A stretch of DNA of 32,000 bases from Candidatus Saccharimonadota bacterium. GTDB taxonomy: Bacteria > Patescibacteriota > Saccharimonadia > Saccharimonadales > Saccharimonadaceae. The stretch spans positions 810,001-842,000 of the forward strand of contig CP006915.1 of the NCBI GenBank assembly GCA_000503915.1, read 5' to 3'. Below, piece after piece: positions 1 to 28,934 of the stretch (the stretch's first letter is position 1; each line of letters starts with the position of its first letter). The notes under the pieces are model-generated. The model was not told where the DNA came from and did no database searches. It saw nothing but the letters and a program-made list of their open reading frames with translations. Made by a program: the position numbers and the translations under genes.

Positions 1-3000
1 AACACCAAGATGTTCTCGGACTTTTGCAAGAATAGAGCCGTTGTAGTGAAAAGGCCACCAATTATATTCGCCCGGGTGCTGGTCCTTTTTTGACTCTGCG
101 ATTATGGCCGGTCTTTCGAAATCTAGACTCATTCTCCAAATCTTGTAACAATCATCAAACTTTTTATCGATATAACGCTTAATAAATATATGAAGATGAC
201 TATAAACATGATGGTTATAGTTCTTAATAGCAAAGGGGAGGTATTTTATACTTATAGCGAAGAACTTATCAAAATTGCCATTGTTTTTAATTGGTTCTTC
301 GGGCAGTTTTGCGATGTGCCAAACCAAAGATTCTCTGTGATCTTCTGAGCCATTTTCTAGGAAATCTTTTAACCTATCTTGAATTAGTTTTGGGTTATAT
401 GGGGGCATTGGTCCGCCACGTGCCTTTGACCAATTCCTAAACGCACCCTTTCTGAATTCTGCAAGGAACAGGAGTAATGTATCAAGCTCTTTTAGTGTTT
501 CTTTATCGCCGTGCTTTACGAATATATCAATGACTTCGAGTGCCTGAGACTCATTCATGGTTCTGATTCTATTGAAGACTCGTGCTAAGTGTTGCAAAAT
601 CCCATAATGATAATTTGTCTTATCTTTCAACATAGTGAAAGCAAAGTCTTCTATCCCTTTGGCCGTAGAATATTTCATAAACCAATCCTTACTTTCAGGC
701 ATAGTCGTGTGGCGATTGTTAGCAAGTGCTTCAAGCATTAGTAGTGATAGTTGTCGAACATACAAACTCTCGTCTGTACAGAGCTTTTTTGTGAGTTCAA
801 ATGCACGCTCCGTATAATCTCGCCCTGCAACGGAATTAACGGGCATTAGTATCCAAGCAATACATCCACGCACACTACTGATTTGGATATTATGCTTTCC
901 TTCAACAACGTCCTTATCAAACTCGCTATTTTTCTCAGGGCTTGGATCGGTGATAAAGAAGTCTGCTATATAGAAAGCTTCTTCAAATTTGTGCTTTTTT
1001 GAAAGCTTCTCGGCAAACCAAACGAAGTTCTCCCGTGTTTCAGTATTTGTAATTTTTGCGGCAAGTTTTGCAGCATTACCTGCAATCTCTAGTTCAGGCT
1101 TAACAATATCTAAGTAAATAGTGTCGAGATAGTCGTCAGGCATATCTCTTAAAACTGAACCAAAAACTCTCTGCTGATTCTCGGTCGGCTTATTGGCAAC
1201 TAGTGAACGCAGTATACCTATACCATTGTCGTAATCTTTCTTTAAAACATTGAGGATTGGATCTTTGGCGTCATACGAATGGAATGAGTCAAGCGACTTA
1301 GAGAAGTAATCACCGTGAAGAAATCCCTCTAAAAGGTGAGTACCCTGCTGGAAAGTGTCGTCGTTGCTAATGAGACGCATAATGGATTGAATTACGGTTG
1401 TATCAAACATAATTTGCCGATTCATATAGTCCTCATTCGCTAAAAGATTAGAGAATGTCTCTATGGCCTGCTCGTGTTTTGCCCCCAAGAGCCCCCAAAG
1501 AACCTGATCCATAAATACGTTAATTGGATAGCCAAACTCTTTAATCGCAACATTCAATAAAGTCCATTTTTGTTCGATGCTCAGTGTCTCGGAGTCTCTA
1601 ACATAAAAGAAAATGAGCTCGGCTTTGTGAGGTATGCCTTTCCTCATCTTTATGAATTCAGACAATATTCTAAAAGCTTTTTTATTGCCTTGTTCATATT
1701 GTTCAAGTAAGAATGGAATAAACGCCCTATTCATAAAGTCGGGTTTAGACTCGCTCACTTCGCTGACTTTAAGAGATATATATTTATCAGCAAGCTTCCA
1801 TTTTTTATCAATAGGCAACCTTTTAAGATAGGGCTTGATAATTGTTCTTATAAAGACTCTGTCGTGAACCTCATAATCCCCTCCGAAGTTTGACGTACCG
1901 CCTCCCATCAATTCCCAGCCATCATATTTGATCTTGAACCTCTCATATTGCCGGCTGTATTGATCTGCAAGTTGTTCAAGTAAATAACTAAAACTGCTTG
2001 GTTTAGCTAGCAGGTCATCTCGTAGAATGTCGAAGAACTTGAAGGGTGTTTTATGTGAATATTTATAATCTTCATCGACAATGTCAAAGGTCTCATATAT
2101 ATAGCTAACTATGTCTGCCTTCAAGCGTTCGTTTCCTTTTGAGTATAGTCTATCGAACCCATTGGCGAGCTCACCTAAAAGCCACTCATCACGAGCCTTA
2201 GAGCCACCTTCAATGAATAAGGGGCTTTCCGTTGAGAATGTATAAAGTCGTTTTAACAAGTCAAAGACATCGTCAATGAGTTCATCGGAAGCATCGACGG
2301 CTTTCATTAGAATATCAGCCGTAGACTTAAACTCATACTCTTCCATATTTCTAAAACGAAGCTTTTGAACATTGTCTTTTATGAAGCTAACTATGTATTT
2401 TGCCGAAGCTTCATCGTTTACATTATCTTCAAATATTCTCAACACTTCTCTTGCGTAGTAAGAGCTGAAAGTAGCTAGCCAGAAACTATGCCAAGCAGCG
2501 AGATCTAGGCTATCGGCCTTAGAGATTTCTTGTATGGCAAAGTAATGAAGACCCGAATCAGCAATAACCGCTTTCAGTCTATTTTCGGATTGAAGCCTTG
2601 AGTTATTTGCATTTGTTAGCTCCTCAAGTATCTTATTGACCGTTTCTCTTGCTGTACGCTCGCTGTATTTATAATCGTCTTTCTTTTTTAGCAATTCTCT
2701 TCGGGCTTCTAGCTCATTATCAAATTCAACTTTGGTGTAATTCCCACCTTTTGCAGATCTATCATAAACATTCTTCACTAAAAGGTTACTTATAAGATCG
2801 TCAAGTTCATCGTCGGGTAACCAAGATCTAAATCTTTCACCAACCAGATTTCTGACAATATCTTCATTCATATCTTTATCTACGACCCAAAATTTCACTT
2901 TAGATATTAATTCTAGATGTCTAGTGGTGAACTGGTGCTTTTTAACTAACCGCTCATTTACTTCAGGATAATACTTTGCATTATCAAGATCCTCTTTGAT

Positions 3001-3279
3001 CCGAGGACCTGTGCTCGTACAAATGATTAGAATTTCATCTTGTTCATTAACTAGTGGCAGCGTATCTAAAATGTCGCGAAGCCCAGCATAAGTAACGTGT
3101 GATTTTTTCGACTCGCAAATTATACGCTTATTGCTAAACACAAGAACGAAGTCCGCTAGCTTTGGCTGCTCCAATTCAATTCGTTGAAAAGACTGGTAAC
3201 CACTGTATTGCACAAACAGAGAAAGAGCTGCCCAGTTTTGAGCATTAAAGCCAGCTTGGCTATTCGCACCTTTACTCAT
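1..3279 (-). CDS. Large protein (partial, >=1093 aa; C-terminus beyond left edge) with an N-terminal Cap4/DUF4297-like PD-(D/E)xK nuclease domain and a long alpha-helical (HEAT/ARM-like) repeat body
   Basis: Absent from the supplied ORF track because it has no stop inside the window. Hand translation of the minus strand from the ATG at 3279..3277 stays open to position 1 (3279 nt = 1093 codons). The N-terminus MSKGANSQAGFNAQNWAALSLFVQYSGYQSFQRIELEQPKLADFVLVFSNKRIICESKKSHVTYAGL shows GFxxQ, then D plus a hydrophobic strand, then ExK. The rest is Leu/Lys/Glu/Asp-rich helical sequence with no Walker A noticed. Its ATG overlaps the upstream gene's TGA (ATGA). Confidence 0.7.
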   Translation of the reverse strand, partial: MSKGANSQAGFNAQNWAALSLFVQYSGYQSFQRIELEQPKLADFVLVFSNKRIICESKKSHVTYAGLRDILDTLPLVNEQDEILIICTSTGPRIKEDLDNAKYYPEVNERLVKKHQFTTRHLELISKVKFWVVDKDMNEDIVRNLVGERFRSWLPDDELDDLISNLLVKNVYDRSAKGGNYTKVEFDNELEARRELLKKKDDYKYSERTARETVNKILEELTNANNSRLQSENRLKAVIADSGLHYFAIQEISKADSLDLAAWHSFWLATFSSYYAREVLRIFEDNVNDEASAKYIVSFIKDNVQKLRFRNMEEYEFKSTADILMKAVDASDELIDDVFDLLKRLYTFSTESPLFIEGGSKARDEWLLGELANGFDRLYSKGNERLKADIVSYIYETFDIVDEDYKYSHKTPFKFFDILRDDLLAKPSSFSYLLEQLADQYSRQYERFKIKYDGWELMGGGTSNFGGDYEVHDRVFIRTIIKPYLKRLPIDKKWKLADKYISLKVSEVSESKPDFMNRAFIPFLLEQYEQGNKKAFRILSEFIKMRKGIPHKAELIFFYVRDSETLSIEQKWTLLNVAIKEFGYPINVFMDQVLWGLLGAKHEQAIETFSNLLANEDYMNRQIMFDTTVIQSIMRLISNDDTFQQGTHLLEGFLHGDYFSKSLDSFHSYDAKDPILNVLKKDYDNGIGILRSLVANKPTENQQRVFGSVLRDMPDDYLDTIYLDIVKPELEIAGNAAKLAAKITNTETRENFVWFAEKLSKKHKFEEAFYIADFFITDPSPEKNSEFDKDVVEGKHNIQISSVRGCIAWILMPVNSVAGRDYTERAFELTKKLCTDESLYVRQLSLLMLEALANNRHTTMPESKDWFMKYSTAKGIEDFAFTMLKDKTNYHYGILQHLARVFNRIRTMNESQALEVIDIFVKHGDKETLKELDTLLLFLAEFRKGAFRNWSKARGGPMPPYNPKLIQDRLKDFLENGSEDHRESLVWHIAKLPEEPIKNNGNFDKFFAISIKYLPFAIKNYNHHVYSHLHIFIKRYIDKKFDDCYKIWRMSLDFERPAIIAESKKDQHPGEYNWWPFHYNGSILAKVREHLGV

Positions 3280-4196
3280 TCTATAGTTCCCCCTACACCA
3301 GTAGCTGTTACGCCAATACTACTCGTCTGATCTTCCTCTGCGGGTAGGAGTGTCTCCACTTTAAACTTACTGATCATCTCAGTCTTTACGTATTGCTTTG
3401 CTTCGCCCTTAATTTGCTCCGGCACACCCGACACCGTGTGATTATCAAGTAGCTTGCGTAGGTACATAAAACTCATAATTTCACCTAAAAGTTCTTTTGT
3501 AATATCATTCCCAGAACCAGTATGTTTTTGAACTATGTAGAGTAATTTAGAAGCAAGATATTCATATGGTAGTTCGTGCACGTGATCATCAACTTCAAGT
3601 GTTTTCGCGATTTCTATTAATTCGGATCGTATATGCTCATCAAGGGTACTCCATGTATGGCCATTGTCATATGGCTGTTCATCGAACTTAACTCTCTTAA
3701 AGAATTTATGAATATCCCTTTGTGTGTTTAAAGCCTTTATGTCCAGCTTCGTTTTAAGTTCATCTGCTGCCGCTCGAACAGGTGCGGTCATTGTGATACC
3801 TAATCTGAGCCTATTAGCTGGGCCAATATAGTTATTAATACCGACTCCCAATCCGTTACTAAAGCTTATGAAACCGTCAAAATCTGGTGATTGCTTGGAG
3901 TACTCTAGAAATGCCAAAATTACATCCCTAACTTCAGAAGATTGGCCCTTCTTCTTACCTGAGCTAGTTGAGTCATTTTTAAATGATTCGCCGGTTTTAA
4001 CCTCGTACACTCTTTCTTTTATCGTATCTCCTGATCCCACTCTTATTAAGATGTCTAGCGAGAGCTGATTCTCTTCGATAGGAAAGTCAGTATAAAGTTC
4101 ACGGATTGTTCCTTCTCGTAATTCTTTCAAAAATAAAAGACAAGCCATCTTATCCTGATAGCAGAATCCCAGTCGAGAAGCATATATGGAAGACAT
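3276..4196 (-). CDS. Cap4/DUF4297-like PD-(D/E)xK nuclease-domain protein (306 aa) with an uncharacterised C-terminal domain
   Basis: ORF track. N-terminus RLGFCYQDKMACLLFLKEL...LSLDILIRV...VYEVKTGE matches the GFxYQ / D-hydrophobic strand / ExK layout of the dsDNA-nuclease (DUF4297) family. AT-rich codon usage. Stop overlaps the start of the downstream large gene. Confidence 0.6.
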   Translation of the reverse strand: MSSIYASRLGFCYQDKMACLLFLKELREGTIRELYTDFPIEENQLSLDILIRVGSGDTIKERVYEVKTGESFKNDSTSSGKKKGQSSEVRDVILAFLEYSKQSPDFDGFISFSNGLGVGINNYIGPANRLRLGITMTAPVRAAADELKTKLDIKALNTQRDIHKFFKRVKFDEQPYDNGHTWSTLDEHIRSELIEIAKTLEVDDHVHELPYEYLASKLLYIVQKHTGSGNDITKELLGEIMSFMYLRKLLDNHTVSGVPEQIKGEAKQYVKTEMISKFKVETLLPAEEDQTSSIGVTATGVGGTIE

Positions 4197-4224
4197 CTAA
4201 ACTAATTATACAATCTTATTAACA

Positions 4225-4253
4225 GAAAACAGCGAGACTTACTCGCTGTTTTC
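4225..4253 (-). terminator. Bidirectional-looking hairpin terminator downstream of tRNA-Gln
   Basis: GAAAACAGCGAG-actta-CTCGCTGTTTTC is a perfect 12-bp inverted repeat with A/T runs on both sides. It lies between the tRNA-Gln 3' end and the island operon. Confidence 0.6.
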
Positions 4254-4286
4254 TGAGCCCATTTGGGTCACCTTTGATGTACTACT

Positions 4287-4360
4287 TGGCTGGGGATGAG
4301 GGATTCGAACCCCCGATCACGGGACCAGAACCCGATGCCTTACCGCTTGGCTAATCCCCA
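4287..4360 (-). tRNA. tRNA-Gln (anticodon CTG), CCA encoded
   Basis: Minus strand reads TGGGGAT TA GCCAAGCGGTAAGGC A TCGGG TTCTGGT CCCGT GATC GGGGG TTCGAAT CCCTC ATCCCCA G CCA. It has the U1:A72 start typical of bacterial tRNA-Gln. A TATAAT box lies at 4376..4371, about 11 nt upstream. Confidence 0.9.
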
Positions 4361-4390
4361 ATACTAAATTATTATACCGTAAATGTGCAG

Positions 4391-4579
4391 TGGGGTTCGA
4401 ATGGATTCGACCGACGTTCCGCCGGCTCGAAACTTCGCGACTGAAAGCGCAGCTTTCATCGGAAGGTTTCCTTGCGAATTGCCACCGGCAATCCTCACCC
4501 CGATCACGGGACTCTGGACCTCGGTGCCTTACCCCCGCCTGTCTGTCCGACAGGACGGGCAGGACTTGGCTAATCCCCA
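4391..4579 (-). ncRNA. Structured GC-rich tRNA-Gln-derived element (long form of the tRNA-flank hairpin family); function unknown
   Basis: Minus strand starts TGGGGATTAGCCAAG, 15/15 identical to the tRNA-Gln 5' end. Next comes the hairpin CCTGCCCGTCCTGTCGGACAGACAGGCGGGG, inserted where the D-loop would be, then GGTAAGGCA and CCCGTGATCGGGG (tRNA-Gln-like). About 110 nt of consecutive short hairpins follow (ATTGCC-GGT-GGCAAT, GAAAGC-TGC-GCTTTC, CCGGC-GGAAC-GTCGG, TCGAAT-CC-ATTCGA). The 3' end AACCCCA can pair with the 5' TGGGG. A TACAAT box lies at 4599..4594. Confidence 0.4.
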
Positions 4580-4618
4580 ATAGTTCACGCTAAATTGTAC
4601 ACGAAATAGCCGCTTATC

Positions 4619-11615: not shown

Positions 11616-14508
11616 TTACAATACTCACCAGCCGGCCGGGAACGTAAATCGTCTTGGCCGGTTTTTGTGTACCGACAAATTTCTGAACATTTTCATCAGC
11701 CAGAGCCGCCGCGATAGCATCTTCTTTACTGACATCTTTAGCGAGCTCGAGTTTGGCACGTACTTTCCCGTTTACCTGAACAACGATTGTCGCTGTTTCG
11801 CTAGTCGTGAGCGCCTCATCCCACGATGGCCATGGTGCAGTATCGAGCGACTCTTCGTGTCCGAGCTGCTGCCAAAGTTCAGCGCTGAGATGTGGCGCAA
11901 ATGGAGCGAGTAGCTGGGTCATGGTCTCTAATACGTCACGCCATGGTTTATCACTAAATCCATCAGCTTTTAATTTGTATAGTTCATTCGTTGCTTCCAT
12001 CATAGCTGCAATGGCGGTATTGAAACTCAATCGGTGCAAGTCTTCGGTGACTTTTTTCGTCGTCTTATGTTGCAAACGACGAACCGCATCGTCCTGCTGG
12101 GTGTCCGCTACTGTGTCAGCTGCTAGATATTCCTGTGTCAATGTCCAGACGCGCGTCAGGAAACGATAGACACCGGCTAGGCCATTAGTGCTCCAGGCTG
12201 AATCTTCTTCGATTGGACCAACAAACAGCAGGAAGGTGCGTAATGCATCAGCGCCGTAGCCTTGGTCGATAATGTCGAGTGGGTCAATGACATTGCCAAG
12301 GCTTTTACTCATCTTGCGGCCGTCCTCGGCTTGGATCAGGCCGTGGTAGACTAGTTTCTTAACTGGCTCCTTGCTCGGTACCAGTCCCATGTCGTAAAAA
12401 ACGTGATTCCAGAAGCGGACGTAGAGCAAATGCGCGACCGCATGGTCGCCACCAACATAGTAGTCAACCGGTGTCCAGTAGTCGGCCTTTTCTTGCGACC
12501 AGGCTTGCTGGTCGTTCTTCGGGTCGGTGTAGCGCAGCAAATACCAGCTACTACAGGCGTAGCCGTCCATGGTATCAGTTTCACGCTTTGCTGGGCCACC
12601 ACACTCAGGACAGGTCGTATTAACCCAGTCGTCGACGCGCGCCAGCACTGATTTACCGTCACCTTTTGGGGCGTAATCTTCTACTTCTGGCAGCACCACT
12701 GGCAGCTGATCTTCTGGCACCGCCACGGCGCCATCTTTTTCACAATGAATGATCGGAATCGGCGCACCCCAATAACGCTGGCGAGAAATCAGCCAATCGC
12801 GCATTTTGTAGGTGGTCATCATCTTGCCTGTTCCCTGCTCTTCCAGCCAGGCAACAACCTCTTCACGCGCCTCACTCGTCGGCATGCCGTCAAAAGCTCC
12901 AGAATTTACCAGTACACCCTCATTGGCATATACGGCTGTCTTTTGATCTAGATACGCCAGCCATACTTTTAGATGCGTCTGCCAGGTAAGCTTTTTAGCT
13001 ACCTGATCTTTTGTAATCCACTCAATAGTGTGCTTGCCCTCATCAACTTCACTTCTGATTTGAGTTTTTGAGCCAAGCATAACTTCATATGCAGCACCTC
13101 TATAGCGATGATTCACCCCTTTGTCCGGACGATAGGCAATACCGGAAATGATTGGGAAAATTTTTCTGACACTTACAATATCTGTATAGCCCGTCTCCTC
13201 AGCTACTTCCCTACGTAGTCCGTCTTCCGTCGAAGAGTCTTCTTGTTCAATCCCTCCCCCAACGAAGTGCGTATCGGTCACCCCACCTTCTGTTGAAGTT
13301 TGTAGCAAGTAATTACCCTCGCCATCGCAGATGACTGCATCCGCCACGTTTCGATCGATAGTCTCAGCGTCTAACTCTGGCTCAAAGTGATCGCCACTAA
13401 TATGATGCTCAGCAACCACTTGCACTACTGGCAATTTGTACTTCTCTGCAAATTCATAATCACGTTCGTCATGAGCCGGCACAGCCATGATAGCGCCCGT
13501 GCCGTAGCCACCAAGGACATAGTCGGCAATCCAGATAGGAATTTTTTCTCCCGTGGCTGGATTGATGGCATAGGAGCCGGTAAATACACCTGTTTTTTCT
13601 TTGCCTTCACTTTGACGCTCAATCTCAGACTTTTTCAGCGCCGTTTTTACATAAGCGTCGACATTTTCGTGCGTCTCATCAGTCGTCAGTGCCTCGACTA
13701 GCGAATGCTCCGGCGCAATAACCATGAAGGTAGCACCGAAAATCGTGTCGGGACGCGTCGTAAATACGGTGAGCGTTTCATCATGCTCGGCGACCAAGAA
13801 CTCAATCTCGGCACCCTGGCTTTTGCCGATCCAGTTGGTTTGGGCAGTTTTGATCTTTTCCGGCCAGTCGAGCGCCGGGATTTCTTCGAGCAGCGCATCG
13901 GCATAGTCAGTAATCTTGAAAAACCATTGGCGAATATTCTTTTTTTCAGCCAGTGGATCGTCGGGACCATCGTGGCGCCAGCACTTGCCATTGATAACCT
14001 GCTCGTTGGCAAGCACCGTTTGATCGATCGGACACCACCATTGCAACGAATCTTTCTGATAAGCCAGGCCACGCTCAAAAAACTTGGTAAAAACCCATTG
14101 GGTCCAGCGATAGTAGTCGGGGTCGGACGTATTGATCTCGCGCGACCAGTCGATACTGGCGCCGAGCCGTTTTAGCTGATGAGTAAAATTGGCGATATTG
14201 TCTTTGGTCACTTTGGCCGGTGCCATGCCGGTCTTGATCGCGTAATTTTCAGCGGGCAGTCCAAATGCATCCCAACCCATCGGGTTCATGACATTGCGGC
14301 CGTGTGCACGTTGAAAACGGGCAATTGCATCGACAACCGAATGTTCCATAGCATGGCCAGAGTGCATACCGGCGGCACTTGGGTACGGGAACATAGGAGA
14401 AATATAGAATTTTTCCCTATCGCCGCCGTCGCTTGCCTGGTAGCGGCGCTCGTCCGCCCAAACTTTTTGCCAGCCAGGCTCGATCTCACTCGGATTGTAT
14501 CGCTGCAT
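11605..14508 (-). CDS. leuS: Leucyl-tRNA synthetase carrying an internal Nudix-like domain insertion (about aa 366-528)
   Basis: PYPSAAGMHSGHAMEH (HIGH-type), KMSKSLGN, and the CP1 editing region (TTRPDTIFGATFMVIAPEH, AVPAHDERDYEFAEKYKLP). The protein is 967 aa. The insertion contains GGGIEQEDSSTEDGLRREVAEETGY. Confidence 0.93.
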   Translation of the reverse strand: MQRYNPSEIEPGWQKVWADERRYQASDGGDREKFYISPMFPYPSAAGMHSGHAMEHSVVDAIARFQRAHGRNVMNPMGWDAFGLPAENYAIKTGMAPAKVTKDNIANFTHQLKRLGASIDWSREINTSDPDYYRWTQWVFTKFFERGLAYQKDSLQWWCPIDQTVLANEQVINGKCWRHDGPDDPLAEKKNIRQWFFKITDYADALLEEIPALDWPEKIKTAQTNWIGKSQGAEIEFLVAEHDETLTVFTTRPDTIFGATFMVIAPEHSLVEALTTDETHENVDAYVKTALKKSEIERQSEGKEKTGVFTGSYAINPATGEKIPIWIADYVLGGYGTGAIMAVPAHDERDYEFAEKYKLPVVQVVAEHHISGDHFEPELDAETIDRNVADAVICDGEGNYLLQTSTEGGVTDTHFVGGGIEQEDSSTEDGLRREVAEETGYTDIVSVRKIFPIISGIAYRPDKGVNHRYRGAAYEVMLGSKTQIRSEVDEGKHTIEWITKDQVAKKLTWQTHLKVWLAYLDQKTAVYANEGVLVNSGAFDGMPTSEAREEVVAWLEEQGTGKMMTTYKMRDWLISRQRYWGAPIPIIHCEKDGAVAVPEDQLPVVLPEVEDYAPKGDGKSVLARVDDWVNTTCPECGGPAKRETDTMDGYACSSWYLLRYTDPKNDQQAWSQEKADYWTPVDYYVGGDHAVAHLLYVRFWNHVFYDMGLVPSKEPVKKLVYHGLIQAEDGRKMSKSLGNVIDPLDIIDQGYGADALRTFLLFVGPIEEDSAWSTNGLAGVYRFLTRVWTLTQEYLAADTVADTQQDDAVRRLQHKTTKKVTEDLHRLSFNTAIAAMMEATNELYKLKADGFSDKPWRDVLETMTQLLAPFAPHLSAELWQQLGHEESLDTAPWPSWDEALTTSETATIVVQVNGKVRAKLELAKDVSKEDAIAAALADENVQKFVGTQKPAKTIYVPGRLVSIVITD

Positions 14509-22576: not shown

Positions 22577-24406
22577 TTACCTAACGAGATCTGTCGACCA
22601 GTTGTTAAGGATATCCTCTGTGTTCGCAACCCAGACATCGGAGCTTTCTGATGATTCTGCGTTTTCTGCAATGCTCTCGACGAGATTTCGGAGATTATCA
22701 TGAGTAAAGCGTCTGCCAGACTTTCTAATTTGTTTGAGAGTTTTCAGAATTAAGACAAATTGGTTGATTGTGATTGGTGTAATCTTTTGCTTGCTGCCTT
22801 TGTAGCCATGGACATTAGCAATCCAAAATGTTTCGGCACTGTCGGTATGAATCGTCGGTGCGATAAATATACAATAGGCATTTTGATTTGTTGCCTCGAA
22901 GTCTCGGAGGTGTCGCATAACAGGTTGACCTTCGTTGTACCACTGGTCGCGCCCACTGAGCATCGTAACTTCACAAATCATATTGAAGTCGTCGTAGTAA
23001 CACTCTATATCCGCCATGCCGCCAGGAGCAGTAGACGTTGGTTCATTATCATCTCCAACGGGATAGTTCGGCTTTATCTCCTTTGCGTCGTTGAGTGCGT
23101 GTAGTCCCATTGTTGAGAGATATTCTAGGCGTAGCGGTCGATTTTCAGCAGTAAAGATATTTTCTAGCTGCTCAATGTAGTCAGTGATTGATTCAACAGG
23201 TTGCGACTTTACGTGATTATCCTGCTCTTGCAGTTCTTTTCGCAAGGCTCGTAACTCACTAATGTAGTCGTTAAGCTCTGCTTCGCTCATTTCTGAGGTA
23301 TTTTTTACGCTAAGAACTGACAAACCGAGATCTATTTGCAGACTACTAACATCATCGTAAACTTCAGACACTATTCCAGCTAACTTATCTTTAGTTTGCC
23401 ACGGCAAACGTGGCTGACTATCGTCTGACATGTAACCCAAGTACTCATCTTTGTCGATGAACGTCTTTGGCTTGTAAAATGCTGTTTCAAATAGTGACTC
23501 AATCTCCGTATGACGGTTAGGCTCTAAGTCGATATAAAATCCATTACCACGAATACGAATGAACTTTGTAAGGCGGAAGTATCGTATTGCATTATCACCG
23601 TAATCACGTAGATTCTTAAGATGTGTATCTATTTCTTTTTGCACGCTTGAGCCAAGAAAGCTGACAGCAAAGCTACGTCGATAACTATCACGCATTGCCT
23701 TCCTGTCTGCCTTTGTTTTACCTTTTTGAGCCTCTCGGAGCTTCACGATCTCATTTGCATATCTGGATATATCACGGTAATTAATTAGCGTAGGGACAAA
23801 TAAGCAGAACTCTCGTTTGCTAATGCCGACCGACTTATTGCCTCGATCCGACCATAGTTTATTTACCTCACTAATGAGCTTGAGCATTGCCACAAACGGC
23901 ACGACGTCGTATTTGCCATCATCACTGTAGTCATTGCTAGCTGGGTTGGGTATTTGCCACTTAATAAACGACTTAAGGAATACATCGCCAGAATCTTTTT
24001 CACTTGCTATCAGTTTTTGACCAAGCTCTGTGATTTTCAAAATACCATTATCTATGAATGCAAAGCCAAACTTTGTGAGCGGGTTGATTGACTGGCGACC
24101 ACGCATCGAGAAATCTTGATAGTTTTTTGCTTCAATAATGCGGTCGATTATAGTGCCGGTAATCTCAGCATCGACATCGTTAATAGTGGCTACAACATCA
24201 GGAGGCAAACCGTTATAAAACTGCTGACTTCCGTAACCATATAAGCGATTCTTGATGAGTAGTTTTTGATATTCTTTCTGGCTATCTCGATTCCACTCTT
24301 TGCCAACAAGGGGTTGCAAGGCAACTAAAAATGCTCTCAGCCGTTCAGGGCTGCGAACGGTGGTTGATATTGACCACATTTTTGACATAATATCATTATA
24401 TCTCAC
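22577..24406 (-). CDS. Type II (IIS-like) restriction endonuclease, AlwI/MlyI/PleI/N.BstNBI-family candidate
   Basis: About 600 aa, directly downstream of the methylase gene (2-nt gap). The N-terminus WSISTTVRSPERLRAFLVAL resembles what I recall of the AlwI-family N-terminus; this was not verified by search. An alternative ATG start at 24388 (MSKMWSIS) has TATAAT 6 nt upstream. Confidence 0.6.
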   Translation of the reverse strand: MRYNDIMSKMWSISTTVRSPERLRAFLVALQPLVGKEWNRDSQKEYQKLLIKNRLYGYGSQQFYNGLPPDVVATINDVDAEITGTIIDRIIEAKNYQDFSMRGRQSINPLTKFGFAFIDNGILKITELGQKLIASEKDSGDVFLKSFIKWQIPNPASNDYSDDGKYDVVPFVAMLKLISEVNKLWSDRGNKSVGISKREFCLFVPTLINYRDISRYANEIVKLREAQKGKTKADRKAMRDSYRRSFAVSFLGSSVQKEIDTHLKNLRDYGDNAIRYFRLTKFIRIRGNGFYIDLEPNRHTEIESLFETAFYKPKTFIDKDEYLGYMSDDSQPRLPWQTKDKLAGIVSEVYDDVSSLQIDLGLSVLSVKNTSEMSEAELNDYISELRALRKELQEQDNHVKSQPVESITDYIEQLENIFTAENRPLRLEYLSTMGLHALNDAKEIKPNYPVGDDNEPTSTAPGGMADIECYYDDFNMICEVTMLSGRDQWYNEGQPVMRHLRDFEATNQNAYCIFIAPTIHTDSAETFWIANVHGYKGSKQKITPITINQFVLILKTLKQIRKSGRRFTHDNLRNLVESIAENAESSESSDVWVANTEDILNNWSTDLVR

Positions 24407-24408
24407 TG

Positions 24409-26397
24409 TCAGTAGTTTGTAATTAGTACCTCGACCGTTTTATTATTCTTTGCCATTGAGTGATAGTTAGAGTTTTTGTAGTGATAGTCAAGTTTGTTAA
24501 TGTGGTAGCTGTTTTTTTCCACCCATTTCTTCATTATCTCGTTAACTTCACCTTTATGCTCCAATACGTTTGAGAGGGCGAACCGTATATTTTTTTTATG
24601 TAGCTTAGTGAGCAGAGTGTACAAGTCTTTTTCATCCTTTTCTGTCCAGCCACCCAGCTCATTATAGCTTGCTAAGCCTAGCAGATATGGAGGGTCGAGA
24701 TACACAAAGTCATCTTTTTGCAATTTCATCATTTCTATATCTCGAAAGTCAGCATGTTTGAATGTAATGTTTTTTTCGTTCGCCGCTTGATTGAACGCCG
24801 CAACATTTCTTCTTGAGCTGCCGTTATAGTCACGTTTACCCACGGGTAGATTGAAGTCACCCTTTGAATTGAATCGTATCTGATTATTGAACGAGTAGAG
24901 AACTAGTATGAGTAATAGGTCAATACGTTTTTTAGATTTATTGAACTCATCACGCAACTCAAGAAATGCTTGTTTATTAACTTTTCCAAGCCCAGCCGAG
25001 CTTTCAGCTCCATAAAAATCATAGCCTTTTATGTAGCTCTGACTTAGACCGAACTTATCGATAATATCGACAATTTGTTGATTCAGGTCATCAAAATTAG
25101 TACCTTGTATTAGCTGCAAAAGGTCAATGACATTCTTATTTTTCTCGACACAGATGATACTTTGGGCATCGGCATTTATGCCAACATTTGCACCCCCAGC
25201 AAACACATCGTAAAAAGTATTGATGTTTTCAGGGAATAGCTTTGTAATCTGCGGCAGCAGTTTATGTTTTCCGCCAGTATAGTTGAGGGGTGACTTAACA
25301 TAGCCACTTTGTATAGGGTTTCGCTTTGATGCGACTATGGATTTTTGTGTTGTAGTTGTGCTATTAACTTTACATAAAAAGATTCGTTCTTTCAGATCAT
25401 CTTTGTTTGATTTGCCAGTTGTAAACTGCTTAAAATCAGTCTCGTATATCTGAACCTCGCCTTTTCGCTTGAGGGCAGAGAGTATTTCATGGTCGCTGAT
25501 TCGTGATTGAGAACGTGCGTTGCCAGAACCACCCATATCGTTATAAGAAACGAGAATGTATTTTGCATTGATTGCGTCGATGAGTTCGCCAAAAGCAACA
25601 CCCGCTGATTTCATACTGTACTTACTCTTTATATGGTCTCGATTGATTTTCTTTGCAACGCCAAACACCTCTTGCTTATGCCATGATGCGATGTTTTCCA
25701 GCAAGTGGTAAGCATCAGAATATTGCCGTGAATTATAGGGCGGGTCGATGTATACCACATCGGCTTTTATTTGCTTTACTAACTCATTTGCATCACTTTT
25801 ATATATCGTTGCTTTGTATTTTGAGGATTTTACATTAAGCGGCAGGAGGAATAGCTCTTTCTTAGGAATATCTATTTTTCTATACGCATCGTAGTGTCCA
25901 ACAGTATTTGCGATTCTATCAAGAGCATAGATAAGCGAGGTGAGTAAATATGACTTTTCTCTCGGAGTAATAATCTTTTCTTCAAATAATTTCTCTATAT
26001 CATCTCGAATGATGCCAATTTTCTTTGAGTTTATTTTGTCAAAGTAGGTATTTGCAAAGTTCTTTGAAAAGTAATTGTCATCGTATTTTTCTATGTCTAG
26101 GGAATTATAAACTTTAAGTCGTTTTTTCAGTTTCTCCTCTCTAATTTCATCATTTCCAAAAAAAGCATTATAAGCATGGTGGTTTGAATCGAGGATATCG
26201 TTTACAATGATTTGGGAGCGGTCGTAAAAGTGATTTGCAACCGACCCAGTACCTGCAAAGATATCTGCAAATGAGTTGAACTTTATATTTTCCTTCTGCA
26301 ATATGCTGTCAATAAAGTTTAGTAGCTTTGTTTTTGAGCCAAGATAACGTCTTTGTGTTATACAGAATGATTTATTTCCAAAATATGCATCGTCCAT
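24409..26397 (-). CDS. Fused double N6-adenine DNA methyltransferase (two Dam/D12-class domains)
   Basis: Domain 1: RRYLGSKTKLL, FADIFAGTGSV, DPPYNSRQYSD. Domain 2: LNYTGGKHKLLPQI, FYDVFAGGANVG, DPPYLLGLASY. The ATG at 26397 (MDDAYFGN) is preferred. The ORF track extends to a TTG at 26487. Confidence 0.85.
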   Translation of the reverse strand: MDDAYFGNKSFCITQRRYLGSKTKLLNFIDSILQKENIKFNSFADIFAGTGSVANHFYDRSQIIVNDILDSNHHAYNAFFGNDEIREEKLKKRLKVYNSLDIEKYDDNYFSKNFANTYFDKINSKKIGIIRDDIEKLFEEKIITPREKSYLLTSLIYALDRIANTVGHYDAYRKIDIPKKELFLLPLNVKSSKYKATIYKSDANELVKQIKADVVYIDPPYNSRQYSDAYHLLENIASWHKQEVFGVAKKINRDHIKSKYSMKSAGVAFGELIDAINAKYILVSYNDMGGSGNARSQSRISDHEILSALKRKGEVQIYETDFKQFTTGKSNKDDLKERIFLCKVNSTTTTQKSIVASKRNPIQSGYVKSPLNYTGGKHKLLPQITKLFPENINTFYDVFAGGANVGINADAQSIICVEKNKNVIDLLQLIQGTNFDDLNQQIVDIIDKFGLSQSYIKGYDFYGAESSAGLGKVNKQAFLELRDEFNKSKKRIDLLLILVLYSFNNQIRFNSKGDFNLPVGKRDYNGSSRRNVAAFNQAANEKNITFKHADFRDIEMMKLQKDDFVYLDPPYLLGLASYNELGGWTEKDEKDLYTLLTKLHKKNIRFALSNVLEHKGEVNEIMKKWVEKNSYHINKLDYHYKNSNYHSMAKNNKTVEVLITNY

Positions 26398-26480
26398 ACT
26401 CCCAATATAGCTTAATGTGGTTATGCTAACAATACCGAATTTTAAGATTTTTGGGTTTTGTGGATAAGTGTACTGACTAT

Positions 26481-26504
26481 GGTTCAAGAGGACTGTTCTC
26501 TTAT
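26481..26504. repeat. 24-bp repeat GGTTCAAGAGGACTGTTCTCTTAT (copy 1), with inverted 7-bp arms around a 7-nt spacer
   Basis: Matches 28101-28124 at 23/24. TTAAGAG-gactgtt-CTCTTAT has the architecture of a recombinase core site. It overlaps the methylase-upstream region and the membrane-protein stop. Confidence 0.7.
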
Positions 26505-28124: not shown

Positions 28125-28246
28125 AACAGGGTCTCACCCTTAACAGATCAAATAAGGCCGGCTTCTATTTTTGAAGAAACCAGGAGTCATAAATCATACA
28201 TACTAATTAAAAAACCGAGGGGCAAGCCTCGATGTCTTAATTGGTG
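28118..28246. repeat. Right copy of the ~127-bp direct repeat; contains the tRNA-Gly(GCC) terminator and ends inside the tRNA 3' CACCA
   Basis: Aligned by eye with 22248-22374. The terminator on the minus strand is CGAGG-cttgcc-CCTCG GTTTTTT (28206-28232). Confidence 0.85.
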
Positions 28247-28317
28247 CGGGTTAGGAGACTCTAACTCCTGGCCTCTTCCATGGCAAGGAAGCGCTCTAAC
28301 AACTGAGCTAAACCCGC
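28242..28317 (-). tRNA. tRNA-Gly (anticodon GCC), CCA encoded, with unusual D and T loops
   Basis: GCGGGTT TA GCTC AGTTGTTA GAGC G CTTCC TTGCCAT GGAAG AGGCC AGGAG TTAGAGT CTCCT AACCCGC A CCA. The D-loop lacks GG (GU instead), and the T-loop is UUAGAGU rather than UUCRANU. Confidence 0.85.
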
Positions 28318-28365
28318 ATATGTGATCAGTGATATATTAGTCACTGGATGAAATGTACAAACATG

Positions 28366-28441
28366 AGCTTTCTTGGCCTGGCAACTCTTCACTCTAACAG
28401 CTGACCTGCCCGCCGGGCGTGACAGGCGGGGCTAAACCCGC
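28366..28441 (-). other. Pseudo-tRNA-Gly(GCC) 5' portion with a GC-hairpin insertion in the D-loop (short member of the hairpin family)
   Basis: Minus strand reads GCGGGTTTAGC [CCCGCCTGTCACGCCCGGCGGGCAGG] TCAGCTGTTAGAGTGAAGAGTTGCCAGGCCAAG. The flanks follow tRNA-Gly(GCC) through the TTGCCA anticodon loop. No T-arm or 3' acceptor is present. Confidence 0.6.
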
Positions 28442-28460
28442 ATGTTGTTTTCAAGGAGTA

Positions 28461-28489
28461 ATTATAGATGAACAGAGCGTTAATTTCAA
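28461..28489 (-). promoter_or_regulatory. Near-consensus promoter TTGAAA-17 nt-TATAAT reading into the pseudo-tRNA element and tRNA-Gly(GCC)
   Basis: Minus strand reads TTGAAA ttaacgctctgttcatc TATAAT. The element begins 19 nt after the -10 box. Confidence 0.6.
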
Positions 28490-28501
28490 CATTACTCATA
28501 G

Positions 28502-28532
28502 AAAAACACCGACGCTCTGGTTCGGTGTTTTT
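28502..28532 (-). terminator. Rho-independent terminator after tRNA-Phe
   Basis: Minus strand reads AAAAACACCGA-accagagcg-TCGGTGTTTTT. Confidence 0.75.
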
Positions 28533-28534
28533 CC

Positions 28535-28610
28535 TGGTGGCTCCTACTGGACTTGAACCAGTGACACAAGGCTCTTCAGGCCTCTGCTCTACCAACTGAG
28601 CTAAAGAGCC
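28535..28610 (-). tRNA. tRNA-Phe (anticodon GAA), CCA encoded
   Basis: GGCTCTT TA GCTC AGTTGGTA GAGC A GAGGC CTGAAGA GCCTT GTGTC ACTGG TTCAAGT CCAGT AGGAGCC A CCA. Confidence 0.92.
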
Positions 28611-28634
28611 TCGTCGGCGTTCACTATCAACCTC

Positions 28635-28658
28635 AACTTTTAAACTAGTTTAAAAGTT
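28635..28658. repeat. Perfect 24-bp palindrome AACTTTTAAACTAGTTTAAAAGTT in the divergent tRNA promoter region
   Basis: Read directly; it is 25 nt upstream of the tRNA-Phe 5' end. Confidence 0.8.
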
Positions 28659-28813
28659 TCGATTTCCCGTTACGCCTCCTCTCAATTTTTCAAACAGTCG
28701 CTTTGCTCCTTGGTTTAAAAAATTGGGGTGCCGCAACACGGAACGAGAACACTCATCATTGTAGCTAAACTAGGGTAAAATCACAAGTCAAACCTTGCTA
28801 CAATGAACTTAAC

Positions 28814-28858
28814 GCGGGTATCGTATAACGGCCACCCGGGTGACCTTCCCCCGCCTGT
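28814..28858 (+). other. Left half of a split hairpin-family element (acceptor-like GCGGGTA ... CCTTCCCCCGCCTGT)
   Basis: GCGGGTATCGTATAACGGCCACCCGGGTGACCTTCCCCCGCCTGT. Its reverse complement, ACAGGCGGGGGAAGGTCACC, matches the segment after the hairpin in element 4391-4579 (ACAGGCGGGGGTAAGGCACC). An extended -10-like TGCTACAAT lies just upstream. Confidence 0.55.
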
Positions 28859-28860
28859 AC

Positions 28861-28934
28861 GCGAGATTAGTATAGTGGCAGTACGCTTGCTTCCCAAGCA
28901 AGAGGCGCCAGTTCGATTCTGGTATCTCGCACCA
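28861..28934 (+). tRNA. tRNA-Gly (anticodon CCC), CCA encoded
   Basis: GCGAGAT TA GTAT AGTGGCA GTAC G CTTGC TTCCCAA GCAAG AGGC GCCAG TTCGATT CTGGT ATCTCGC A CCA. Confidence 0.9.

Follow-up and report, generated by a model that had tools for sequence, protein, structure and literature searches.

The left end of a 32,000-nt stretch of the Candidatus Saccharibacteria RAAC3_TM7_1 genome (GenBank contig CP006915.1, positions 810,001 to 842,000 of the forward strand; hereafter the window) carries two overlapping minus-strand genes, one for a small protein of 306 aa and one for a large protein of 1157 aa. Both proteins were predicted to begin with a divergent Cap4-type nuclease domain of the PD-(D/E)xK class, followed in the large protein by a HEAT-repeat solenoid of about 1000 aa. 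With moderate confidence we interpret the pair as a two-gene, nuclease-based defence module against phages or other mobile genetic elements that belongs to an undescribed family, has the effector plus HEAT-sensor layout of DSR2 and, in the same joint assessment, forms the tRNA-proximal cargo of a 9.15-kb integrative island. Members of the Candidate Phyla Radiation (CPR; Patescibacteria) have tiny genomes with few recognised defence systems, and their resistance to phages is an open question. Effector nucleases of the Cap4 type are known from the cyclic-oligonucleotide-based antiphage signalling system (CBASS), Lamassu, Hachiman and Avs.

The large gene starts with an ATG at position 3279 and runs leftward past the window edge, with 1093 codons without a stop. 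The full-length protein of 1157 aa was taken from the public contig L001 (SRR944699), which is identical in sequence over window positions 1-4314 (100%; L001 position p equals window position 4315-p) and reaches 4.9 kb past the window, the final 64 codons of the gene falling beyond the window. Residues 1 to ~135 (2875..3279, minus strand) make up the predicted nuclease part, and residues ~136-1093 (1..2874, minus strand) a helical linker and HEAT/ARM-type alpha-solenoid. The small partner gene (3276..4196, minus strand) encodes an N-terminal Cap4-like PD-(D/E)xK domain and a helical C-terminal domain; it is deposited as AHB42764.1, where it is annotated as 290 aa. Its stop overlaps the start of the large gene in an ATGA read directly in the sequence (3276..3279, minus strand), indicating translational coupling of the two genes. 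At 90% identity, AHB42764.1 clusters with the small protein and AHB42763.1 with the large one, and both are labelled 'hypothetical protein'. An initial annotation, made from the sequence of the window, had described an ATGA-overlapping minus-strand pair in a low-GC block at a tRNA-Gln gene, and this was confirmed by the open reading frames (ORFs), by the GC content (0.36-0.43 over positions 1-4000 vs ~0.47-0.56 in the backbone) and by ARAGORN.

Both proteins share a series of N-terminal motifs, GFCYQD, SLD48ILIRV and YE65VK67 in the small protein and GFNAQNW, LAD43FVLVF and ICE56SK58 in the large protein, and these exceed chance similarity. In 65 full-length homologues of the large protein at 23-49% identity, E37, D43, E56 and K58 (the last two within E56-x-K58) were invariant, while G10 and Q14 (of G10-F-x-x-Q14) and D81 were nearly invariant. 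D48 and K67 of the small protein were invariant throughout the small-partner alignments, as was E65 in an 11-sequence alignment of the small family. The A7 type has QxK in place of ExK, like HamA. Overall, conservation of the catalytic residues was stricter in the nuclease of the large protein than in the partner.

The nuclease assignment of the two proteins, also proposed in the initial annotation as Cap4/DUF4297-like, found no direct Pfam match, yet was upheld by profile comparisons. Neither the 306-aa nor the 1093-aa protein matched PF14130 at E<=1, and the family was unmatched by all 40 large homologues scanned. The syntenic partner encoded in L008 (263 aa), however, exceeded the PF14130 gathering score (27.8 vs 26.2 bits; E 3.6e-6), and its relatives P0045, P0047 and P0048 were pre-annotated as PF14130. 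Alignment by hhalign linked the small family of the window to this PF14130-positive partner family (prob 71-92; P 3.9e-5 to 6.5e-7), and the N-terminal domain of the large protein was linked to the same family over ~180 columns (prob 88-91; P 1-3e-6, best 1.1e-6). Pairwise BLASTP was not significant between the small and large window proteins, nor between the small protein and the L008 partner, so that the apparent kinship of the three is visible at profile level only. A sequence-profile search of the PDB with the window proteins returned only a trivial match to a HEAT-like alphaRep protein or noise.

Structure prediction with AlphaFold2 (AF2) gave a large-protein model, covering the 1093 aa in the window, with a predicted local distance difference test (pLDDT) of 86 and a predicted TM-score (pTM) of 0.64, and a best small-protein model with a pLDDT of 78 and a pTM of 0.80. 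The N-terminal elements of the large model (H13-25, E31-36, E43-48, E52-57, H64-73, E82-87) and the topology of the small model (H3-28, E31-40, E45-55, E58-67, H87-102, E107-113) follow the same order, and both predicted models contain the α-βββ-α-β core of PD-(D/E)xK enzymes. D43 opens β2 and E56-x-K58 lies within β3 of the large model, and D48 and E65-x-K67 occupy β2 and β3 of the small model. The top PDB matches of the small model in Foldseek were HamA (8zue_A; E 2.7e-5) and two LmuA structures (9hr5_C, E 1.4e-3; 9nxx_B, E 2.9e-2). HamA/AbpA of E. coli (8zue_A) has an N-terminal Cap4 nuclease domain with the active site D45/Q58/K60 (PMC11914072). The Foldseek search of the large protein was made with the whole protein and was dominated by solenoid matches. 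Because residue conservation, predicted structure, profile links and fold search converge, we accept that both window proteins carry putative, divergent Cap4-type nuclease domains that lie below the Pfam threshold.

The body of the large protein (~1000 aa) was predicted to be all-helical from residue 135, the sole exception being a hairpin at residues 459-474. The HEAT/ARM-like character given to it in the initial annotation was borne out by the confident AF2 model, by Foldseek matches to CAND1, importin-β, exportins, SF3B1, the HEAT subunits of condensin (7qen_D) and FANCI (3s4w_A), and by several of the 40 scanned homologues, which match HEAT, HEAT_2 or Cnd1 in Pfam. The top-ranked solenoid matches were protein-binding HEAT proteins (CAND1 and importins). 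A motif search of the large protein found no Walker A, GxGxxG or DEAD motif, and no nucleoside triphosphatase (NTPase) family was matched by the protein in Pfam, PADLOC or NCBIfam or by its homologues in Pfam, in line with the NTPase-free body that had been proposed. Within the solenoid, the polar positions G454, P513, D514, R518, R749, D778 and P781 were invariant and K552 and R804 nearly invariant (>=90%), a pattern that suggests a specific binding or regulatory site. Two of the 40 homologues also match the Cro/C1-type helix-turn-helix (HTH) families HTH_3/HTH_31. These are probably P0081 and P0119, in which the nuclease domain starts ~70 residues in; the HTH may have been fused as a regulator, or an upstream HTH gene may have been merged into the gene call.

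Homologues of the large protein were collected by a word-seeded search (35 homologues) and by an exhaustive phmmer search with the first 220 aa, which gave 107 clusters at 50% identity. Nearly all of the 107 clusters hold proteins of 1150-1270 aa or fragments, and they come mostly from metagenome-assembled genomes (MAGs) of the CPR. A genome scan using one genome per species found 38 loci of the large protein. Among CPR groups these were in Saccharibacteria, Daviesbacteria, Shapirobacteria, Gottesmanbacteria, Doudnabacteria, Moranbacteria, Giovannonibacteria, Peribacteria, Parcubacteria and Microgenomates, with scattered copies beyond the CPR in MAGs of Gammaproteobacteria and Deltaproteobacteria, in Chloroflexia, Armatimonadota, Margulisiibacteriota, Elusimicrobia and Actinomycetota and in a Pedobacter MAG. 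Searches of IMG/VR viral contigs (pattern-seeded scan), of 50,697 phage genomes and of 72,556 PLSDB plasmids turned up no relatives.

The upstream gene was compared across the genome-scan and metagenomic loci, 39 of which had an evaluable upstream region. In 34 of these it overlaps the large gene or stops within a few nt of it, most related loci showing a 4- or 8-nt overlap or a gap of <=5 nt. Five partner types were distinguished: the Cap4-like type of the window (10 loci), a PF14130-positive Cap4 (6 loci), an Mrr-like protein of ~200 aa (7 loci; sub-threshold Mrr_cat matches, E 0.013-0.16), a Schlafen/AlbA_2 protein (8 loci; PF04326, E 2e-19) and a protein of ~360 aa with a WKFECKD motif (3 loci). 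A coupled partner is missing from the remaining five loci. A neighbour-joining tree of the large proteins showed the partner types interspersed, with different partners in close sisters; the conserved core is therefore the large protein, and the gene upstream of it is an exchangeable module. The description of the system as a pair of Cap4 nucleases, as in the initial annotation, holds for the window locus and fails for the family, with its five partner types and partnerless loci. In close relatives of the window pair both genes always share one contig. A docking domain common to the five partner types was considered and rejected, as the Cap4 types showed no similarity to the Mrr-like, AlbA_2 or 360-aa types in hhalign. 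A 182-aa ORF upstream of the large gene in L006 was also rejected as a partner, having a 262-nt gap, low complexity and no homology.

Downstream of the large gene the other loci vary. In L013 (3753-4841), L036 (2609-3709), L027 (11667-12773) and L047 (8739-10448), a conserved gene starting MFKYLQADQYYVDRYDL or similar follows the large gene directly or overlaps its end; the sole match of this conserved gene is a weak one to SseK/NleB-like proteins (E 9.5e-4). The stop of the large gene is overlapped by a 178-aa gene in L017 and L044 and by a 305-aa gene in L002/L045, and some lineages may have a third component. Further PD-(D/E)xK proteins are encoded directly downstream in L011 (11589-12347; PDDEXK_1/Cas4-like) and L020 (11594-13114; DUF2779 plus a Cas4-like region).

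The initial annotation placed the pair in an island at tRNA-Gln, and extension leftwards into L001 revealed both a direct repeat and a recombinase. A perfect 23-nt repeat, CGAATCCCTCATCCCCAGCCAAG, occurs at L001 8-30 (window 4307-4285) and again at L001 9161-9183, 9153 nt apart, and delimits a 9.15-kb element. The tRNA-proximal copy (attL; 4285..4307, minus strand) comprises the last 21 nt of the tRNA-Gln gene and 2 nt downstream, and the integration target is tRNA-Gln(CTG) (4287..4360, minus strand; ARAGORN; Rfam RF00005, 58.5 bits). The gene that follows the large one is convergent and encodes a large serine recombinase (Resolvase, Recombinase and zinc-ribbon domains; PHROG integrase, E 3e-62), after which come six small ORFs, one of them weakly HTH/terminase-small-like. 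More components of the system had been expected to the left; the large gene instead ends 64 codons on, and no other part of the operon is present to its left, where the recombinase comes next.

A sister element in L049/L050 was 84% identical over L001 18-8984, with a 92% identical large protein. There the element adjoins a PLDc_2 gene with no tRNA, and homology begins exactly at CCCAGCCAAG. The presence of the same element at a second site shows that it is mobile and maps its left border. Between attL and the small gene, within the island, lies a perfect hairpin with a 14-bp stem, CAGAAAACAGCGAG-TAAGT-CTCGCTGTTTTCTG (4223..4255, minus strand), which had been assigned as the terminator of tRNA-Gln. 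This hairpin was retained in L049, where a compensatory A/T to G/C change affects both arms. As it moves with the element into a non-tRNA site and carries a compensatory change, it is island sequence and not the tRNA's own terminator; it is probably an insulator of the operon against tRNA read-through, or a regulatory or att-arm element. The L049 sister element is ~2.3 kb longer than that of the window, with extra cargo including a NUDIX gene. Its far end (~12046-12069) carries ATCCCCAGCCAAG after a degenerate tRNA-like 3' half, and neither end is an intact tRNA.

The island of the window also holds two overlapping ORFs of 190 aa and 339 aa (L001 6697-8266, plus strand) that have no family matches. 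The 339-aa protein contains EIRNNTVHNG, an Rx4H motif as in HEPN RNases, and the two ORFs may form another small module of the island, for defence or as a toxin. A prophage was rejected as an explanation of the element, which at 9.15 kb has no structural genes and, besides the recombinase, only weak PHROG matches (terminase-small/HTH-like and Sie-like). An origin of the large protein as a phage or plasmid gene was rejected as well, no relatives of it having turned up in IMG/VR (pattern-seeded scan), INPHARED phages or PLSDB plasmids.

Restriction-modification genes were frequent neighbours of the pair. Among 99 ORFs flanking it in 28 loci, the families counted included N6_Mtase (7), N6_N4_Mtase (7), ResIII (7), Eco57I (6), SWI2_SNF2 (5), TaqI_C (4), HSDR_N (3), Methylase_S (3) and serine-recombinase/Resolvase domains (7), where one multidomain protein may enter under several families. 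The directly upstream co-directional gene was a restriction component in nine of the 10 loci checked (HsdR in two, HsdS in one, an Eco57I/MmeI-type enzyme in four, GmrSD in one and a Res-type helicase in one). The restriction gene overlaps or abuts the partner gene in L011, L044 and L048, and in L010 an MmeI-type enzyme lies 10 nt upstream. Other neighbours were EcoRI-methylase, GmrSD and HD genes (L008 and L052), Eco57I/Type ISP (L005) and NB-ARC-TPR and reverse transcriptase genes (L006). In L031 an upstream ORF of 1043 aa has, by reading, an HsdR-like N-terminus, followed by an ORF resembling a DUF45/YgjP-type hydrolase, also by reading. Large serine recombinases akin to that of the window island also adjoin the nuclease-HEAT gene elsewhere, in the unrelated lineages of L016 (1213-2796 and 7518-9059), L029 (11633-12916) and L051 (2194-3864). 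In L016 a partnerless nuclease-HEAT gene stands between two recombinases, one on each side, which suggests a recurrent recombinase-borne cassette.

As far as the available parts of their reports describe them, the solved Cap4-type nucleases (CBASS Cap4, HerA-DUF4297, HamA and LmuA) are inactive until a partner or ligand alters their assembly. For this reason we propose that the solenoid restrains the nuclease or nucleases of the pair. The core of the module would be the 1157-aa protein, with its N-terminal Cap4-type nuclease, catalytic residues intact, mounted on the NTPase-free solenoid of ~1000 aa. The solenoid would keep the nuclease inactive and would serve as the receptor of an invader-derived trigger, which may be a phage protein or an abnormal DNA/protein complex. 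Binding of the trigger would release or oligomerise the nuclease, leading to degradation of DNA. The upstream coupled 306-aa Cap4/HamA/LmuA-like nuclease would dock on the large protein as an accessory effector that can be exchanged. A broader version, in which the family represents a new class of NTPase-free innate immune receptor, widespread in the CPR, whose solenoid recognises a phage component and licenses the built-in Cap4 nuclease while the upstream slot takes unrelated effectors, is put forward tentatively and falls short of what we would call probable.

The closest known layout is that of DSR2, in which a SIR2 effector is joined to a HEAT-repeat sensor of a phage tail-tube protein (PMC11263360). 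Like DSR2, the large protein is a single chain of comparable size with a putative N-terminal effector, a long HEAT body and no NTPase. Unlike in DSR2, the effector would be a Cap4-type PD-(D/E)xK nuclease in place of a SIR2 NADase, and a translationally coupled partner gene is usually present. SIR2 had no match in the Pfam scan of the window proteins, the N-terminus instead having a predicted PD-(D/E)xK fold. Hachiman type I-B (HamA/AbpA with HamB) likewise couples a small Cap4-type nuclease to a large regulatory partner, and hamA overlaps hamB by 4 bp (PMC11914072). HamB, however, is a superfamily 2 (SF2) helicase/ATPase, whereas the large partner here is a HEAT solenoid with a nuclease domain of its own, and the window proteins had no helicase, DUF1837 or PADLOC Hachiman match and no DEAD or Walker motifs.

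Lamassu (LmuA and LmuB, a structural maintenance of chromosomes (SMC) protein, with or without LmuC) has effectors that are diverse according to the abstract of its report, and the two systems are alike in their interchangeable small effector flavours, including Cap4-like and Mrr-like ones. Here, in contrast, the variable module is a separate protein beside a conserved nuclease-HEAT protein, and there was no SMC/Rad50-like ATPase in the island, no Walker A in the large protein and no PADLOC match to Lamassu. CBASS Cap4 and HerA-DUF4297 share the nuclease family PF14130 with the pair, as reached through the syntenic partner type and the profile-profile links. No CD-NTase (cGAS/DncV-like nucleotidyltransferase), SAVED or other ligand-binding domain was matched in Pfam or PADLOC, the other island genes being the serine recombinase and small ORFs, and no HerA or FtsK-like gene was found in L001 or the window, nor any PADLOC match to HerA-DUF4297 or SIR2-HerA. 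With no cyclase, SAVED or HerA, the logic of activation would have to differ from that of CBASS Cap4 and HerA-DUF4297. The element as a whole resembles tRNA-targeting defence islands in its 23-nt tRNA 3' repeat at both borders, its recombinase, its low GC content and the defence-like cargo beside attL. It differs from them in having a large serine recombinase and not the usual tyrosine integrase, and in being only 9.15 kb long with no phage structural genes. The claim that the pair is not a named system agreed with the null result of PADLOC and with literature searches, which turned up no account of a HEAT solenoid fused to a Cap4-type nuclease, nor of this set of partners. The joining of an effector nuclease to a repeat sensor was accordingly rated as a combination of separately known parts that is itself undescribed.

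Several observations weigh against the interpretation as a defence module with two Cap4-type nucleases and a DSR2-like sensor. Neither window protein had any match in Pfam, PADLOC-DB v2, NCBIfam or PHROGs. Only one of the five AF2 models of the small protein was confident and the other four were poor, the TM-scores of its top three Foldseek matches were modest (0.41-0.44), and the hhalign link between the N-terminal domain of the large protein and the window's own small family was weak (P 1.5e-4 to 7.6e-3). Of eight diverse partners (Cap4-A6 type), two have G or S at the position of E65; with the E of ExK lost, the Cap4-A6 partner of some lineages may not be catalytic. HEAT solenoids are scaffolds of a generic kind, DSR2 was not among the 50 best Foldseek matches of the large protein, and no sequence match was found between the large protein and any PDB chain, DSR2 included. 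The counts of adjacent restriction-modification genes are descriptive, with no background rate beside them, and the window's own copy and those in L049-L051 have no adjacent restriction-modification system.

Other functions were weighed against the same evidence. The neighbourhood fits a guard or backup linked to restriction, in which the HEAT protein monitors a Type I, IIG or III enzyme or docks on it, and frees its own nuclease(s) when a phage anti-restriction protein disables that enzyme, or else serves as an extra nuclease subunit of translocating restriction enzymes. PrrC, held by EcoprrI, is a model for such a guard. The restriction component found directly upstream and co-directional in nine of 10 loci, the overlapping or abutting genes of L011, L044 and L048, the 10-nt spacing of the MmeI-type enzyme in L010, the HsdR-like ORF of L031 and the domain counts among the 99 neighbours would all agree with it. 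We nevertheless consider it unlikely, since the systems next to the pair are of unrelated classes (Type I, IIG/L, III and IV), which points to clustering in defence islands and not to a specific partnership, and since the pair travels in a 9-kb island free of restriction-modification genes, the copies in the window and in L049-L051 having none beside them. About as improbable, in our estimate, is a constitutive Type IV-style enzyme that senses DNA modification or structure, with the solenoid as a DNA tracker or clamp, the partner as a DNA reader and the N-terminal nuclease as the cutting domain. The Mrr-like and AlbA_2 DNA/RNA-binding folds among the partner types, the DNA-binding HEAT proteins in the Foldseek list (condensin 7qen_D and FANCI 3s4w_A), the stricter catalytic residues of the large nuclease and the five loci with no partner are consistent with such an enzyme. 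The best solenoid matches, however, bind proteins (CAND1 and importins), the Mrr_cat matches are sub-threshold (E 0.013-0.16), and no DNA-binding motif or methyltransferase companion was identified.

Its place at the end of an integrative element, beside the recombinase, could also make the pair an addiction or maintenance module of the island, one nuclease being a toxin checked by the other protein, or give it a role in the processing of the element's DNA. Translational coupling is found in toxin-antitoxin pairs too, and related serine recombinases adjoin the pair in L016, L029 and L051. Most members of the family, however, adjoin restriction-modification genes and not a recombinase, the partner is freely swapped for unrelated folds, a HEAT protein of 1157 aa is very unlike known antitoxins, and the pair is absent from the plasmid and phage genomes and, in the pattern-seeded scan, from the IMG/VR contigs; we regard this explanation as very unlikely. 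Least probable of all, and hardly to be expected, is a housekeeping or other non-conflict role, such as that of a scaffolded DNA-repair nuclease present in variable regions by chance. FANCI/D2-type HEAT folds occur among the Foldseek matches and HEAT-nuclease combinations exist in eukaryotic repair, but the patchy distribution across phyla, the GC content below that of the host, the perfect att repeats and two different insertion sites of the island and the lack of conserved genomic contexts argue against such a role.

The nuclease-HEAT family is concentrated in the CPR and goes unrecognised in Pfam, NCBIfam, PADLOC and PHROGs. Its absence from the 72,556 PLSDB plasmids, mostly of cultured isolates, and from the 50,697 phage genomes would explain why defence screens have missed it; the present analysis found it only in MAGs and metagenomes. 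The family unites an apparent Cap4-type effector nuclease and a putative DSR2-type HEAT sensor in an architecture that lacks an NTPase and has an exchangeable slot for a partner. If the pair is a defence system, it would represent a new receptor-effector design and a compact test case for the gating of nucleases by solenoid sensors, and would indicate that discovery based on cultured genomes alone overlooks whole families. That the pair repeatedly stands close behind restriction genes of Type I, IIG, III and IV raises the idea of a restriction-linked second line of defence.

The remaining features of the window concern signals and neighbouring loci. A TATAAT hexamer (4205..4210, minus strand) stands 8 nt 5' of the ATG of the small gene and is a possible -10 box, which would give a nearly leaderless transcript. 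For lack of a good -35 the hexamer went unreported in a consensus promoter scan. TrmD of the window corresponds to AHB42766.1. Directly upstream of tRNA-Gln, a 199-nt stretch (4385-4583, minus strand) matches the tRNA in its first 15 nt (TGGGGATTAGCCAAG), ends in TCGAATCC...CCCCA and resembles a tRNA-Gln-like gene carrying large insertions. It was not recognised by ARAGORN or Rfam (E<=1), and its minimum free energy was -81 kcal/mol (z = -2.0). A second low-GC block (0.34-0.45) lies at window 22577-26487 (minus strand). Its genes are for a restriction endonuclease of the AlwI family (609 aa; PF09491, E 9e-96) and for a protein of 692 aa in which two stretches match D12-class N6-adenine methyltransferase; together the two look like a Type IIS restriction-modification system. 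A tRNA cluster (tRNA-Gly, tRNA-Phe and tRNA-Gly; 28242-28934) is located ~2 kb from this block, which may be another acquired island.

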